Shown here piece by piece: positions 6,901-46,944 of a stretch of 64,000 nt of DNA; the first letter of the stretch is position 1; each line of letters starts with the position of its first letter. Source of the DNA: Negaprion brevirostris (Eukaryota); contig JARDVH010000042.1 in NCBI GenBank assembly GCA_030324005.1, positions 83,003,332 to 83,067,331 of the forward strand. The letters are read 5' to 3'. The notes below the pieces were generated by a model that was given only the letters and a program-made list of their open reading frames with translations, ran no database searches and was not told where the DNA came from. The position numbers and the translations under genes were made by a program.

Positions 6901-9900
6901 TGAACCAGAAATAAAAATGTTGGATAAACTCAGCAGGTCACAGCATCTGTGGAGGGAAACAATTGACGTTTTTAGATTTGAATTTTGATCCAATACATTA
7001 AATAATCCTCAAACGTTCCTGAAACAGAAGGAGCACTTGGATCCTAGGGTGGGATTTTACAGCCTTGCTCATCCTGAGACTTAATCTTGCCTGAGGTCAA
7101 CAGACCTTCCCATACTTCACCCCTCACCAGCTCCAATTCCTGTGGCAGGTGGGCGACTCCAGCCATGATAACTTTCTCCTAACAGATATTACAAGATCTG
7201 CTGTTTTTACTTGATTTCCAGCAGTTGCAGTATTTTGCATGAACCAGAATGCATTATGAAAAATGATTAAATGGTCCCTGTTACTGAGACTAGCTTTACC
7301 TTGCAAGTGTGTTAACAATTCAAATTTCACCAGCTGTCATAGTGAAATTTGAACTTGTGTGCATTGGCAGGGTGCCTTGATTAATCTAGCAGCAATACCA
7401 CTCAGCCACTAAATGTTACCTCAATTGAAAACTGATAACTTGCTTTATGCAGTGTTCATATAGTTTTACTTTGGACTCTAATCTGGTCAAGCCAGCACTT
7501 ATTGCAATTCACCTTTTTTTGACTGGACTGACATGTCAACTCATCTCAATGTGGTGGAGGTATGCATATTTTGAAGGAAAATCATGGGTTGGCCTCCAGT
7601 AATTTGGCTCCAATTCTGGCTTTGGGTGACTTGAGTTCACATTATCCATATTTGTGGGCTTCTGCCAAGTACTTTAGTCTTGTCCCACTGTCCAGAGATG
7701 TGCAGTTAGATGGATTGGCCATGCTGAATTACCTCAATGTCCTACAATGTGTAGGCAGTGACAAAAACTACTGTCCTAGAGCCATCTTCCTAGACGGTTA
7801 TAAATCCTGGCTAGCATTGCTGCCCCTCCAGCCTCAGGTGACTGGAGTTTGCACATTCTCCCCCATGTCTGTGTGGGTTTACTCCAGGTGCTCAGGTTTC
7901 CTCCCACAGTCCAAAGATGTGTGGGCTAGGTGGATTGGCCATGCTAAATTGACTCTTGCATCAGGGGATTAGCACAAATGGGGTTTAGGTGGGATTGTGG
8001 TTGGTGCAGACTAGATGGGCCAAATGACCTCTTGCACTCCGGATTCTATTCTGGAAAACAACTGATTTTTGGAATGGTAACAAAAAAAATTAAGATCATC
8101 AGATTCCACTGGCACAATTAGCAACAGGATTGTGCTTCCATACAGCTGCTCTGCATGTTCCTGTCATCCCCACCTGAGCCACATCAGTAACCTGTGATGG
8201 GGTCATGATCTGAAAGTTTCAACTCTGTTGCATTGCTGTAATTTTTGATACAATTTGGCACAACCAAAAACTTGCCCTCTTAAGGGACAAAGTGCNNNNN
8301 NNNNNNNNNNNNNNNNNNNNNNNNNNNNNNNNNNNNNNNNNNNNNNNNNNNNNNNNNNNNNNNNNNNNNNNNNNNNNNNNNNNNNNNNNNNNNNNTCTTA
8401 AGGGACAAAGTGCTGGAAGCTAAATATTGCCAAGTCATGTCTTTTGCATTAATTACCAGTTGAAGGTTCCTATTTGCAGTCCTTGCATAGAGATTCTTAA
8501 AATTAAGTTGATTTCATTTGGTAAGGATTTTTTCTTAACTTGTATTCAATATAATTTACTAAAAGCATTCTAATTTCAGTAACAATGGATTTGCCTCATG
8601 GCAATACTCTTGGGCATATTAAAGCAAAAAATTTAATCTAATCTAAGTTGCCATGAACCAGAATATGCAAATTTTAATCAATTCCCACTAGAGGGGTCAC
8701 TTTGATGATTTTTGTTTAAATGACTCCAAAGCATAACTTGCTCCACTATGAATAACTTCTATACTTAATACAATTCCAGGTATTCCCTTGTTTAATTGCA
8801 TTATACCAATAGTGTTTTTGATTATTCATGGATTGGATTGAAGTAATTGGAAGGTGATGCAAGTGTTTTTAAACATGGAGGGGGAAGAGGGTAGTGCAGC
8901 AATTATCCCAGCCCTCTAGCACTGATCCCATTCCCCAGCACCAGTATTGTCCAGCAGCATGTGACTGCTAGCCACTAATGAACAGGCAGCTGACCTGGTG
9001 GAGGGCCCAGGGGGAGGGCATCCAGAAGGCTGCATGTGCTGATCTATGGCAATTGGCTTGTCAGCACTATGCTGCCATCTTCTTGTGGGAATATGCCCCA
9101 CCCTGGATTTTTCAGTGAATCCTGCTAGGGCACTCTGGCAGTGTCAGATTATCCTAGAAATCATGCATTTTTGAGGGGGGAAAAAAGCAGGGTTTACTCC
9201 TACTTTTCTCCAAACTGGAGACTTTTTGGAGAATTCCAGCCATGGTTTCTGATAGTGGACAGCTATGACCTCTAATTCTTGACACTTGGTTCACTGAGCA
9301 GTAAAAAACTTCTACACACAGTGCTCCCACCAATCTATTGGCATACACCACCATACAGGTAGATACATATTGAGCAACCCTCACTACTTGGTTTCTGCAT
9401 TAGTTCTAATCAATAATTCCATTTGTTCTAAAATTGGCATCTTTTCTTTCAGGCACTTTTGTTTGCAATATACTTGAGTTTACTTGCTCCAATGGCAGAT
9501 GTATTACTAAAACATTTATCTGCAATGGTGAAGATGACTGTGGTGATGGAAGTGATGAAAAAGGTTGTGCTCCATCTATTTGTCACTTGCATGAGTTTCA
9601 ATGCAATAGTTCTGAATGTATCCCCTTGAATTGGGTGTGTGACAACAATACTGATTGCGTTGACCAATCTGATGAAGCTCCAGAACATTGTGGACATGCT
9701 CTCCCTCCTGTGACCTGCTCTCCTAGTGAATTCCTATGTAATTCTGGTGAATGCATCAATCAACACTGGTACTGTGATGGAGATGATGATTGCAAAGATG
9801 GAAGTGATGAAATTAATTGCCGTAAGTCTTTATTTGGCTACTGAACTAAATCTCAAACTTGCAAAGTGGAAAACTTCCTAGTTGAGGTGTACAAATTGCT

Positions 9901-15900: not shown

Positions 15901-18900
15901 ACTTTTTTCTAGTTAGCATCATGTTCTAACTGGTTACCTTTGTCCATCTGACCTACTTTTCAATCCATATGCAAATTGAATTTTTTTTTTTTGCCTTTTG
16001 ACCACTGGACATCCCAATGCCATTTTTAATGTAGTAAGCAGTAGCTAATTTGTGCAGAGCAAACAAAACAGCAATATGACAACCTTGGGTCAGGACACTA
16101 GTGAATTTGGTTTAAAATTACTTTTAAAGTATTTCAGGCACACCACCTTGCCACTTGCCTGGGACCTCCTGCCACTTCAAAGTAAGCATAAAATATTGGT
16201 TCTATATCTCCATTTAATGATTTTGATCCTGTTTATTGTGTACTGACAAACTTTGGTTCAATTGGGTCTTCCAAGCAATTGTATTTGTAGCTGTTATCTT
16301 GCAATAAAAAATCAATATCTTCCAGGATCGTGTTTTCTGGACTGATGAAGAAACAGAAGCAATCTATGGAGCCAATAAGTTCACTGGAGCAGATTTGGAG
16401 ACACTTATTTCTAATCTCCAGGAAGCACGGGATCTCTTAATTTACCATGAGCTAATTCAGTTGCCTGGTAATGCTCAGCTATTTTTCCAGTCTAATTTTT
16501 AGCTACTCCTTGTGCAAATTTACTACATTTGCCTTAAGTGCAGACACTGCACTCAACACTAAGTTTCTAATTGGCTCTCAACCTGCTCTAATTAACCTTG
16601 ATCAAGCTACTATAAAACCCTACTCTAGGTGTAGTTTCCAAAAACACCAAATACTACTCCTGTAGCAATTTCCCACAATTTTTGGGCTTTGTGCAGAATT
16701 TTAAAACTTGCTGTAAAATCATGAGCAAAGGGTATTTGGAATAAGTCAAATGTGACATTGCCATGTTCCCAATTTTNNNNNNNNNNNNNNNNNNNTTTGC
16801 AATACTCTGGATTGGCAACACAATACCATATCAACAGACACAATCAAATTTCTCCACAATTTGACATTTATAAACAATCCATGTTGGCACCTAGCAGTTG
16901 AGTGAAGAATTGATCTCTTGCTTATGGCAATTTGTACATCTAATTCTGCATTTGAGGTGCAAGTAAAAAGGAGCTGTGTAAGACATGTAAATTTGATTAT
17001 AATTTTGATATTCAGAATACTTCAGGTAGTGATATTGGGAATTTCTTACAGGCAAGAACTGGTGCAATGAGAGTGGAAGCTGTGAATACATGTGTCTTCC
17101 TGCTCCTCAAAAAGACACCACCTCTCCCAAGTACACTTGTGTGTGCCCATATGGAATGAAACTGGAGCATGGACAAAAGTGCAGTACAGGTACACCTAGG
17201 CATCTAACTACAGTTAGCAAAACTTTTGGCATGGACTTTTTTCAAAATGCTCAACTTCAACCCAAACTTTCTGGACATGAACCTCAGCATTTCATCCAAT
17301 AGCCTTTTTTCCATGAGCAATAACTTTAAATTGTCTTGATATCTAAAACTTTCTCTTTCAGACACAATAGCCTGTGGTATTTATGAATTCAGTTGTGGGC
17401 CTGGATCTCTTGTGTGTATTCCTATATCCTGGAAATGCGATGGAGCAAAGGACTGTGCTAATGGTCATGATGAGGAGAACTGTGGTAGGTTGATTACCTG
17501 CTCAGTAGCTAACAGCAACCAATGGTTGCTATCAGCTGTTGTGTATTGTCTCCATTCCCTATCAGTGCCTAAAAGCTCTTTATGGAAAGCAGGGCCATCA
17601 GCAGTTCACATTGATGTACATCCAGTACCATAATGAGTCATGTTTGGCTTTTGAGGGGCAGAAGGGACCTCTTGTAACCATGGCAGACTTCTGTAATGCA
17701 TTCTGTACTCCACAACTGGCCCCTCAGCCTCACTCAAATTTCAAGCAATCTGTTTACTAAATCCTTAAGATCACATGAAATGTCAATGGTTTCCTTTTGA
17801 ACTAAATCTAGCATTTTCTGCTGCAATCTTAGTCACATGAATAGTATGACAATATTGAAGTCTATGAAATCTGAAACTGGTTAGACAAAAACAAATTGTG
17901 CTGAAACTTGTTAGACAGCATCAGGGAGAGCACTCTTGTTTACTGACCTTTGCAAACAATTTTATTACATATACAAGGTCTCAAGTCTCACTGAAATTAA
18001 CTTTTTTACTTCTGTCTTCAGGCACCCTTACTTGCAGCATGCTAGAATTTACTTGCTCCAGTGGCAGATGCATTTCCAACTCCTTTGTTTGTAATGGTGA
18101 AGATGATTGTGGTGATGGGAGTGATGAAAAAGGATGTACTCAGTCTATCTGTGGTTTACATGAATTTCAGTGCAATAGTGGTTTAGAATGTATCCCTTCA
18201 AACTGGGTGTGTGACAATAATATTGACTGTACAGATAAGTCTGATGAAACTGCCAAACAATGTGGACACACTCCTGCACCTCTTGAACCCTGTTCTACCA
18301 ATGAGATTATGTGTCATTCAGGTGAATGCATCCACCGCCAGTGGTACTGTGATGGTGATCGTGATTGCAAAGATGGAAGTGATGAAATAAATTGTCGTAA
18401 GTAAAGCTCTTTTTCTCTTGCACCTACTGTCACTTTTTAAGCCATTGAGGAGTTTAGAGGAAGCTCTCTAGCAATGAAAAGTAAACTGATTTTATTTCAA
18501 AGCATTTAAGGCTCAATTTAACCTTAGTCTAGTATCAGCAAGGAATAAAGCTATTAGTTCAATTTGTAATGTAAATTGCAATCTTTTTAAGCTCCTCGCA
18601 CTTGTCGGCCAGATCAGTTCAGATGTGGTGATGGTTCCTGTATCCGTGAGAGTTTGAAATGTAATGGATACAAAGACTGCAATGATGAAAGTGATGAAGT
18701 TAACTGTAAAAATGGTAAGAATCTGCAATCATGTTGCAGCTTATTCCTTCCCCAAGATCAGATTGGATAAATGCAATTAAAAGGCAAATTGATGCATCAA
18801 TCATGCCATGTTTAATAGTGCCCCAGTCAGTCATTTGATTTTGGGCTGCTAATCTGAAAAGTGGCAATGCCAGTGTTAAACTGAAATGATCACTAAGGAG

Positions 18901-43600: not shown

Positions 43601-45510
43601 AAGTTAATTGGTATTTAAATGTTGCATAATTTCAGGTGTTGGCTGTGAAATTTCTGAAGCCATGGCCTAAAGCAAAAGTTAATCAACAAGCAGTCAATCT
43701 TTTGGGTTAGGAAAGATTTTTCAAAAGTAATATTTCAAATTTAATCATTAAAAACATTCAATGTTTTTTACACTGCTTCAGTTCCAAGACATTTCATACA
43801 TTACAGTACAGTTCTTCAAACTATATATACTACATATTCCATTTGTGCAACTCTAACAGCAGCACAGTTACACAGTAGGGGCTTAAAGAAATTAGCTGGC
43901 TAATCATTGCAACCTCCATATGAACAACACCTCTGGATAAACCTAAGTATGGTGTCTGCCTGGCTAGTTGCAGTATCCTGCAGCTGAATCTTGATGTGAG
44001 CTGTTGCAACAGGACCCATAAACTTGAATGGAAGTTAACTTTGCAAATGTTAAATCTTTTCCTCATTGGGAGGGAGAAAAGTTAAGCCTTAAATTTCATG
44101 ATAATTGTGCTAGATTTGCCTATAACTCAAGGCCTGAGCAGGCAACCCACATCTTAGTTCTGCATTAATTTTTAACTGTCTTTTGGAAGTTAACAGGACA
44201 CCATTTTTGCTTCCCTGGGAATTGGAAATGTTCATAATCTAGTGCAAAAATTTTCTGTAAATAGATGTCTGGATTTAGACTCCCTTTTATAGAGGGGGCA
44301 AGATCACAGCTGACTGCAGTGTTTAATGCCCTAACTGTTGGGTTATGGGTTTTAAAGAAATAGTTTGCACACAATTAGATATTGTCTACAGAGTAGAAAA
44401 TTAAGCAGGAACCTAATAAAACACAAGTATGTGACCCAGCTCTAAAGCAATCATGCAGCCGCTTGATATAAATGTGCAGAAACACTTGCAGATTTCAAAG
44501 TAACTGTTCAGTGTCTGCAGTAAAACAATTCTTCAACAAATTCTTGCTGTCTATCTTGGCTAACATCAGTTGCTAATTGTCTATAAACACAATCTTGTAA
44601 TATTTCAATCTTTATGAAGAATTTGATTCATATTAGAATATAATATCTAATATTCTAATTGTTTGGAGTTCCTCAGGATGGCTTGTATTTTAACTTGTTC
44701 TAAACCAGAGAATTACTGTTCAAAACTTCAAGTTTGTCAGCAGGTGGGCTGGTAATTGACTATACCATTCAGATAACTTGCATTTTCCATGAGAAGATGG
44801 AAATAAAGGGTTTGAATGTGGGAGGGGAATGGAGGGAAACAGCTGCACACATGTTGAATGTTCTCCACTGTCCACCACACATGGAAGGTGAGGAGTTTTT
44901 CACCCAAAATATCTTGAATTTGTCTTTAACTCCATCTTGGGCTTCCCAAAGCACTTTATTGCTCTTGCATAAGAAATCCAGCAGCAAAACTGCAATCAGC
45001 ATTGGAAGAACTCTTAAATATCTAGTTGACCAGCATGATCAAAAATGCAGCCCTTCAGTCCCACTGGTGACCCTCTTTGTAAGACAGATGTAGAGAAATG
45101 CATAAAACATGCAGTACTAGCTCAACAGGCATCAGCTTAGTTTTGAGGTACTGGATCTTTTGGTTGCTCTGTAAAACAAGATGTCATTTTTGTCCTTGGT
45201 TGTAATGTTTGTCCCAGCTAATCCTAATGAACTGGTTATCTAGTCACTATTGCAGGACTAAGGTCAAGTACAAACCAGCATTTTTAACTGCTGGTTGATC
45301 CTTTTTTGTATGAGTGCTGAGTGAACATTGTGGGTTAGTCTAAATGGCAAATTTGACATGCCCCCCCACTTAGTTTTTGGCTTCTGCTAACTACTGCATT
45401 GATTAAGGGTTTAATAAGTCTCTCCTATGGTAAGAGTGCATCATTAGTACAGAATTAAAACCAACTATGGAAAAGTGGAAGATGTGAATCATTGACAGTT
45501 TTAAGGGCAT

Positions 45511-45585
45511 ATAGTAGGTAGGGACAGTGGGAATCTCATTCATCCATTCATGTGCATCACTAATTAGATGACAAGGCATTTGGCA
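45511..45585 (-). pseudogene. 28S rRNA fragment immediately downstream of the R2 target site
   Basis: Minus strand reads TGCCAAATGCCTTGTCATCTAATTAGTGATGCACATGAATGGATGAATGAGATTCCCACTGTCCCTACCTACTAT, the conserved 28S sequence with CpG decay. Confidence 0.93.
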
Positions 45586-46038
45586 TTTTAATACAGAGTG
45601 CCTTATTTGAGTCTTTACGTCACTCATCGACGGTTTGGACTACCTCTAGCGGAATCCCAGTCAGGGCTCCCTGATCTTAATTGAGGAACATGAGCTGTTG
45701 TCTATGCTAGAGATTGTATTTCTAGCTATCTATGGACATCCCCAATCTTAGGGGTCTACTGATGAGCCAGTTTGTCAGTACCAAGTGTGCAGGAAACCTT
45801 ATGGCGAGAGTGAAAATTTAGAGTTTTAATTAGCCAAATTGAGCAAGGTCCAATTACAGGATAACTTATTAATGCCAATCAGCCTGACGAGCACGTTTTT
45901 GGGATGTGGGAGGAAACCGGAGTGCCTGGGGAAAACCCACACAAACACGGAGAATGTGCAAACTCCCACAGACATTGCTGTCCAGCATACAGTGCTAACC
46001 ACTGAGCTGACATGTTGCCCATTGACCAGTCCAGAATT
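45586..46038 (-). mobile_element. Older R2 3'UTR copy (runs into gap)
   Basis: Colinear with 46194-46663, more CpG-decayed, ends TAAAA directly at the 28S junction. Confidence 0.85.
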
Positions 46039-46138
46039 NNNNNNNNNNNNNNNNNNNNNNNNNNNNNNNNNNNNNNNNNNNNNNNNNNNNNNNNNNNNNN
46101 NNNNNNNNNNNNNNNNNNNNNNNNNNNNNNNNNNNNNN

Positions 46139-46188: not shown

Positions 46189-46480
46189 TTCTATTTTAAT
46201 ACACTCAATGAGTGCCTTGTTCAAGTCTTTACGTCGCTCGCCGACGGTTTTGACTATCTCTAGCGGAACCACAGTTAAGGGTCCACTGATCTTGATTGAG
46301 GAACGTGAGCTGTTGTCTAAGCTAGAGATGGTATAACTAGTTATCTAGGGTTATCCCAGATCTAATAGGGGCCTACTGATGAGCCAGGTTGTCAGTACCG
46401 AGTGCACAAGAACCCTCATGATGACGAGGGTGGAAATTTAGAGGGTTACGTTTATGCTGAACTAAGGGGAATCCAATTAC

Positions 46481-46645
46481 AGGACAATTTATTGTTGCCA
46501 ATCAGCCTAACAAGCACGTTTTTGGGATGTGGGAGGAAACCGGAGTGCCCGGGGAAAACCCATGCAAACACGGGGAGAATGTGCAAACTCCCACAGACAT
46601 TGCTGCCCAGCGTACAGTGCTAACCACTGAGCTGACGTGTTGCCC
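46481..46645 (-). repeat. V-SINE/HE1-like core embedded in the R2 3'UTR
   Basis: Minus strand: GGGCAACACGTCAGCTCAGTGGTTAGCACTG...GGAGTTTGCACATTCTCCCCGTG...CTCCGGTTTCCTCCCACATCCCAAAAACGTGC; also at 45858-46020. Confidence 0.85.
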
Positions 46646-46944
46646 ATTGACCAGTCCAGAATTATCATCTACTAACGGCCATGACGCACTGGGCGCCTCT
46701 CGAATCAACACCCAAGAACCAACCAAGTACGACCTGCCGAGTGCACACCCCTTGTCGGTCAACAAGGTGGACTGTAGCACCTGTAGATGGCATTAGGTGT
46801 CATCAATGAAATACAAATAGACAATACACAGACAGTACAAACACTGAATCAGAGTCCACCATATAAGTTCATACGGCCTCCGTGCGGGCTATAAGGTCAG
46901 TGGTCTGACAAGTGGCCAGCTTGTCCAGTGGTCTCGGTCGCCTC

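Follow-up and report, generated by a model that had tools for sequence, protein, structure and literature searches.

Why should the 3′ untranslated region (UTR) of an rDNA-specific retrotransposon contain the core of a SINE? The question is raised by a 64,000-nucleotide stretch of the genome of Negaprion brevirostris, hereafter called the window, in which a preliminary description had placed a V-SINE core inside an R2 3′UTR. It proposed that this core was fixed in the R2 lineage and possibly functional.

The R2 locus in the window

The features of the locus are as follows.

About 51001-51385, minus strand: 28S rRNA fragment, 5′ flank upstream of the R2 site (Rfam LSU match at 50993-51090; 73-89% to the 28S of contig C50).
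46945-50376, minus strand: R2 open reading frame (ORF), lineage A, with three N-terminal zinc fingers and a Myb-like region, reverse transcriptase (RT) and C-terminal region.
46781-46944, minus strand: first part of the 3′UTR, fast-evolving (net divergence 0.30), ending in a pyrimidine-rich stretch and AG that resemble a splice acceptor (YAG then GT in 15 of 17 copies).
46646-46780, minus strand: folded module, probably a shortened form of an ITS1 domain (eight copies with a fold z of -1.8 to -5.4; 3′ end common to the 506-nt form).
46603-46645, minus strand: 5′ part of a tRNA-derived SINE head; a 34-nt B-box segment is deleted between 46603 and 46602.
46485-46598, minus strand: V-domain of an HE1-like V-SINE, without the SINE tail (match to the free SINE).
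46194-46246, minus strand: terminal pseudoknot-hinge-stem, predicted R2-protein binding signal (architecture as in PMC12180492).
46140-46193, minus strand: CR1 RT fragment flanking the first UTR, identified by translation.
46039-46138: gap of 100 N in the assembly, separating the two UTRs.
45586-46038, minus strand: second R2 3′UTR, from another subfamily, with its SINE core at 46020-45858.
45505-45585, minus strand: 28S sequence, 3′ flank downstream of the R2 site.
7812-8052, plus strand: free V-SINE copy, 5′-shortened and with its own tail, used for comparison.

28S sequence is found on both outer flanks of the whole locus, as expected of an insertion at the 28S R2 site; the upstream match was the only one that Rfam gave at gathering score in the whole window. 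The ORF belongs to a dead copy: in-frame stops lie at 48327-48325 and 47181-47179, and the true stop at 46947-46945. It matches Pfam RVT_1 and is closest to the vertebrate A-clade R2 protein R2Tg (9dou, E 1e-121, against only 1e-28 for L1); the three zinc fingers and the Myb region were found by alignment to R2Tg 220-391 and by translation. By eye, the protein is also similar to the shark R2 proteins in PMC13188248 Table S2. The R2 sequence of the first UTR ends at 46194. Since 100 N separate the two UTRs, their adjacency may be an assembly join.

Three further observations concern the surroundings of such elements. On the strand opposite to R2, the window contains an exon with three LDL-receptor class A repeats (17868-18404, plus strand), and the R2 possibly sits in an intron of that gene. 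A second, more decayed V-SINE lies directly upstream of the free copy (7600-7730, plus strand). Outside the rDNA, a 5′-truncated R2 with 28S sequence on both sides (locus L125, 3518-4438) resembles the window locus and probably arose by retroposition of a 28S/R2 co-transcript.

A segment derived from a SINE

As the preliminary description had stated, an A-box head (46645-46603) is joined to the V-domain (46598-46485) in the sense orientation of R2, and the LINE-derived tail is missing: no SINE tail follows the V-domain in R2 copies. The match to the free SINE is real (7844-7951, 76.9% over 108 nt, E 2e-17), but "closely matching" overstates an identity of 77%. The absence of the B-box segment is likewise true of both window copies and not of R2 in general. 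Among the 19 R2-proper copies with a visible head, the 34-nt segment is deleted in five and kept in degenerate form in 14; one deep R2 lineage retains an intact B-box. Because the B-box was repeatedly lost, the core is unlikely to be a Pol III promoter.

A genome search gave at least 55 matches from 40 scored candidates. The UTR alignment comprised both window UTRs and 23 of 30 loci; the other seven were the window itself (two), L019, in which the site is deleted, and four whose sequence does not reach across the site. The second UTR carries the same insert at the same position (46020-45858). The two window inserts are 92.6% identical, against only 82.0% for the UTR downstream. The nearest relative of the second UTR lies on another contig (94.8%), the first UTR being only 86.6% identical to it, and the second UTR terminates in 28S target sequence; it is no local duplicate. 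The insert also occurs at the same site in most R2 subfamilies of this genome, in copies on many contigs, some of them flanked by 28S. It belongs to the R2 lineage, as had been proposed, and neither of the outcomes that would have spoken against this was obtained, namely a core missing from rDNA-resident R2 and two UTRs that arose by local duplication after insertion of the SINE. Among the four 28S-flanked copies that span the site, two (the second window UTR and L006) have the core; L019 carries its deletion there and L093 belongs to a basal lineage without the core. In all, six of 31 R2 3′ ends had a 28S flank when read by eye.

By its composition the R2 segment is derived from a SINE and is not itself one. 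The V central domain is present (77% to the free SINE, and alignable with 26 free copies), as is the A-box part. A tRNA head with both A- and B-box, a CR1/HER1-derived 3′ tail and independent mobility are all lacking. The names V-SINE and HE1 are applied here by description, and they agree with the accounts in PMC4824008 and PMC3747384.

The cassette and its ITS1-derived module

The insert is only the 3′ portion of a larger cassette, which begins at 46780 and consists, in order, of a folded domain apparently derived from ITS1, the tRNA head and the V-domain. The module upstream of the head varies among copies from 135 to 506 nt, the window having the 135-nt form, and in 15 of 17 copies it starts after a pyrimidine-rich stretch and YAG then GT. 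This acceptor-like region has a net rate of 0.14-0.20, which is not especially low, and no copy spliced there was noticed. The 506-nt form is collinear, on the sense strand, with the host ITS1 between 18S and 5.8S on contig C50 (alignment score 365, against 155 +/- 9 and a maximum of 184 in 100 shuffles). The short module of the window shares just its 3′ end with the 506-nt form (E 5e-5), which points indirectly to an ITS1 origin for it too. Modules folded better than shuffled sequences (z -1.8 to -5.4, eight copies), and four of 27 pairs had changed on both sides in 45 rows, a modest covariation signal. Contig C50 also holds a GC-rich, divergent 18S-ITS1-5.8S beside the vertebrate-type unit (L189, G000:C50:5713-8865); this could be the rDNA of a parasite or contaminant, or a second rDNA type.

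The cassette was likely joined at the RNA level, by template jumping of the R2 RT. Such an origin fits because two cellular RNAs stand end to end, both in sense orientation, with the 5′ end of the SINE intact and its tail absent. The R2 RT has been described to jump templates (PMC12180492). Insertion at the DNA level, followed by trimming, is the alternative.

Distribution and history of the cassette

A search of the genome with the R2 protein, and thus unbiased for the UTR, gave 125 matches. The ORF tree was built from the last 600 nt of the ORF in 31 copies and rooted at the midpoint; it leaves out three copies whose ORF pieces were short and all loci lacking an ORF end. The cassette was present in 19 of the 31 copies (17 with the SINE core, two broken off inside the module) and missing in 12, one of which (C124a) has an N gap in the UTR. 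The three most basal copies, all on long branches, are without it. So is a young pair (C10625 and C31a) nested in the main clade (100/98). Fixation of the core in R2, which the preliminary description had proposed, is therefore not supported: the core is absent from these 12 copies, the young nested pair among them, and from the UTR of a zebra shark R2.

On this tree four cassette changes are needed, at least two of them forced by strong branches. The cassette was thus likely gained once and lost at least twice, one loss falling in a young subfamily. In the tree of SINE cores, those of 14 main-clade copies group together (100/99) and are ordered like the ORF tree; the cassette is inherited with the ORF. 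A single origin of all 19 embedded cores relative to 26 free ones was not rejected (AU p 0.375), which is no proof of it. Seven of 18 shared V variants fitted a split of the ORF tree, a weak test given that the ORF itself reached 94 of 224.

Short tandem repeats were seen in cassette-less subfamilies (L114, L115, L058 and L116) and, by eye, to either side of the cassette of a sister copy. Because the same repeats flank the cassette there, they suggest loss by recombination between direct repeats. Two other rearranged UTRs were encountered. In L095 (523-830 after the stop; G000:C106:54267500-54269800) the R2 cassette runs into a free-SINE tail, a crossover within the V-domain. L100 (370-830 after the R2 stop; G000:C193:15756300-15758800) has a processed ribosomal-protein retrocopy, which we take to be RPS19-like, inside an old R2 3′UTR.

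For other species, the 13 chondrichthyan rows of PMC13188248 Table S2 were used, five of which have UTR sequence in the accessible part. There, the complete UTRs of zebra shark R2-1 (about 215 nt) and of the elephant shark R2 contain no SINE core, and none was found in the first 400 of 478-565 nt in dogfish, stingray and one bamboo shark. By eye, the zebra shark R2 terminus resembles that of the window. A metagenome scan with the R2 protein gave 137 pattern matches, none of them confirmed, and a search by place for look-alike windows in other genomes found none.

CR1 as a second host

An abundant CR1 family with at least two subfamilies (L121 and L127-L186; for example G000:C97:86645200-86646100) was seen to carry an R2 3′ end with the ITS1 and SINE cassette in its 3′UTR. 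Its own ORF end is followed by the R2 ORF end, cassette and R2 terminus, and then by the CR1 tail. Two CR1 searches each gave at least 40 scored candidates, and all 30 loci taken from one of them show the CR1 ORF, the R2 remnant and at least part of the module. The R2 donor of this tail is nearest to one R2 subfamily group. CR1 took the cassette over from R2 at a later time. The B-box region was deleted again within the CR1 family.

An older and a younger CR1 subfamily (18 and 17 copies) were compared, without a valid fourfold control for these rates: V (0.046) and the module (0.042) changed slowly, and the R2 terminus (0.304), the R2 ORF remnant (0.191) and the sequence after V (0.245) have decayed.

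A contact of another kind was seen in six R2 copies of different subfamilies, which end in CR1 RT at the same codon (window 46193-46140; L009/L109, L012, L013, L015 and L020). Such ends make up five of 31, plus L013 three bases upstream, and in L109 both junctions continue one CR1 frame (PGN|RPVSL). Judging from these junctions, the CR1 RT codon is a recurrent natural off-target site of R2 with partial likeness to the 28S upstream sequence.

Rate constraint on the V-domain in R2

Rates in R2 were taken as net between-subfamily JC distances from 11 main-clade copies, 10 of them in three groups; all rates come from dead copies of one genome. The V-domain had a net distance of 0.048 [0.017-0.083], against 0.362 [0.241-0.503] at fourfold sites, and was below these in 1000 of 1000 site resamples. 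The claim that the core is better conserved than the neighbouring UTR was borne out, and the level is about that of first and second codon positions (0.069 and 0.030). The other UTR parts reached 0.30 and 0.227 (flanks), 0.135 (head), 0.169 (module) and 0.074 (terminal 80 nt). Between deep lineages, 0.254 of the V sites differ, compared with 0.51 of the fourfold sites.

Conversion from free SINEs as the sole cause of this slowness was rejected for the main clade. At nine of the 114 V positions, at least 13 of the 14 main-clade copies share a state that is seldom seen among the 26 free SINE copies, and because these positions persist in setting the R2 copies apart, conversion is argued against. 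A short 3′ patch in one R2 subfamily may have been converted, as judged by eye. The rate of private non-CpG changes was 0.028 in V, compared with 0.032-0.037 at codon positions 1-2 and 0.025-0.052 elsewhere in the UTR; of the four cassette segments V had the lowest (0.028 against 0.04-0.05). The slowness of V is possibly mutational in part. Low mutability can explain only a small part of it, since the private rates in V are similar to those at codon positions 1-2.

A structured RNA was considered for V and is unsupported by folding and covariation. V did not fold better than shuffled sequences (z -1.3 to +0.8), and none of its 24 pairs changed on both sides in 36 rows. Because of this, nothing ties V to RNA rather than DNA.

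Possible roles of the V-domain

The explanation that we favour, and to which we give about an even chance, is that the cassette was captured once by RT template switching and that V has been selected as a host-factor-binding element of the LINE RNA. The R2 RT would have switched template, joining the ITS1 domain, tRNA head and V-domain into the R2 3′UTR. V would then bind host factors and make the LINE RNA more stable, better exported or better translated, acting on RNA rather than DNA. Its advantage would be small and the element dispensable, because subfamilies without the cassette still spread. It is tempting to go further, with somewhat less confidence, and to regard V as a promoter-independent cis element that can pass from one retroelement to another and benefits the life cycle of whichever retroelement RNA contains it. 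Such an element would have been captured with an ITS1 domain by the rDNA-specific R2, passed to CR1 and selected in both hosts while the SINE promoter and the R2 terminus decayed.

Selection might instead act on V as a DNA element: as an enhancer, an insulator or a site that counters silencing, V would maintain transcription of rDNA units with an R2 or of the source copies of CR1. CR1 is transcribed by Pol II. R2 is co-transcribed by Pol I (PMC3414825), so a single DNA element would need to work for both, and next to V in the cassette lies a folded RNA domain whose sequence is conserved together with V in CR1. We consider a DNA element unlikely, even though the constraint on V lies in the primary sequence with no folding signal and enhancer or transcription roles have been proposed for SINE central domains (PMC4824008).

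Similarly doubtful is a neutral passenger, whose V-domain would be a hub of recombination or template switching among R2, CR1 and SINE copies, or simply slow to mutate. Repeated loss of the cassette, the L095 crossover within V and the low private rate of V would agree with it, and a role in tail or module exchange is among the published hypotheses (PMC6887750). It is hard to reconcile with the nine diagnostic positions that persist against free SINEs and with a core tree that follows the ORF tree; moreover, the private-rate difference is about 1.5-fold, against a between-subfamily difference of about 5- to 7-fold. We therefore favour an element acting in RNA, at about even probability, over either of these two unlikely readings.

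A link between the core and binding of the R2 protein, which the preliminary description had implied through target-primed reverse transcription (TPRT), is very improbable. For vertebrate A-clade R2 proteins, the signal is a terminal pseudoknot-hinge-stem of about 65-68 nt, and 68 nt suffice (PMC12180492). In the window this predicted structure lies at 46246-46194, about 240 nt downstream of the core, and its pairing was seen in 25 R2 ends. Copies with and copies without the cassette both have this terminal signal, so the core probably does not provide the signal for TPRT. V could still assist TPRT from its place in the 3′UTR, where it is as conserved as the terminal signal, and in silkmoth R2, of the D clade, determinants are distributed across the UTR (PMC12180492). 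V is conserved in CR1, however, where the R2 terminus is decaying. Finally, there is a negligible chance that a SINE inserted locally and was then duplicated, or that the arrangement is an artefact of assembly: an N gap does separate the two UTRs, but the identical insert site in copies on many contigs refutes this reading for the insert itself.

Comparison with known systems

Why SINE central domains stay conserved across animals is described as unresolved (PMC4824008). Here, two autonomous LINEs unrelated to each other carry V free of a Pol III promoter and tail; codons provide rate controls and natural deletion variants exist, and for these reasons the function of V should be directly testable in existing R2 insertion assays. 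In addition, R2 is seen here to have acquired nucleolar and SINE RNA and to have passed it on to a second LINE, and the cassette may suggest a UTR module of use in gene insertion with R2. The literature searched (PMC12247875 and PMC13343379 among it), a scope outside which lay most subscription papers, Repbase and Dfam, gave no account of a SINE within an R2 UTR; the main text of an R2 survey has no occurrence of "SINE".

Several systems share parts of this arrangement. HE1, a V-SINE of sharks and rays with the partner LINE HER1 (PMC3747384, PMC4824008), likewise has a tRNA-derived head followed by a V domain, and the R2 segment matches free copies in the genome. Unlike HE1, the segment is without a LINE-derived tail, its B-box is degraded or deleted, and it moves inside the RNA of autonomous R2 and CR1. 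Lineage-A vertebrate R2s (R2Tg/TaGu and PlaMe; 9dou, 9nl3, 9nl2; PMC12180492) and chondrichthyan R2s (PMC13188248 Table S2) have in common with it the three zinc fingers, RT, 28S site and terminal pseudoknot-hinge-stem. Their UTRs differ from those described here, which are 750-1300 nt long with an ITS1 and SINE cassette, whereas that of zebra shark R2-1 has about 215 nt and none. Fish R2 families whose 3′UTRs contain 28S-derived sequence (PMC5035012) have likewise acquired rDNA-derived sequence; in the present case it is ITS1 together with a SINE, and the target site has not changed. The LINEs Ingi-3_AC and R4-1_ADi also have a SINE-domain-like segment, of Ceph/RTE-like sequence, in a UTR, but this is the 5′UTR and the domain is another one, and no selection test was found in the text consulted (PMC5786205).

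While a SINE core in an R2 3′UTR is apparently undescribed, the closest precedent for capture of a V domain is the MITE MER6, in which a V domain taken from a V-SINE was also spread by an unrelated transposon (PMC6887750). MER6 is a non-autonomous DNA transposon, whereas the hosts described here are autonomous retroelements that carry V in their RNA and whose codon positions provide an internal rate control.
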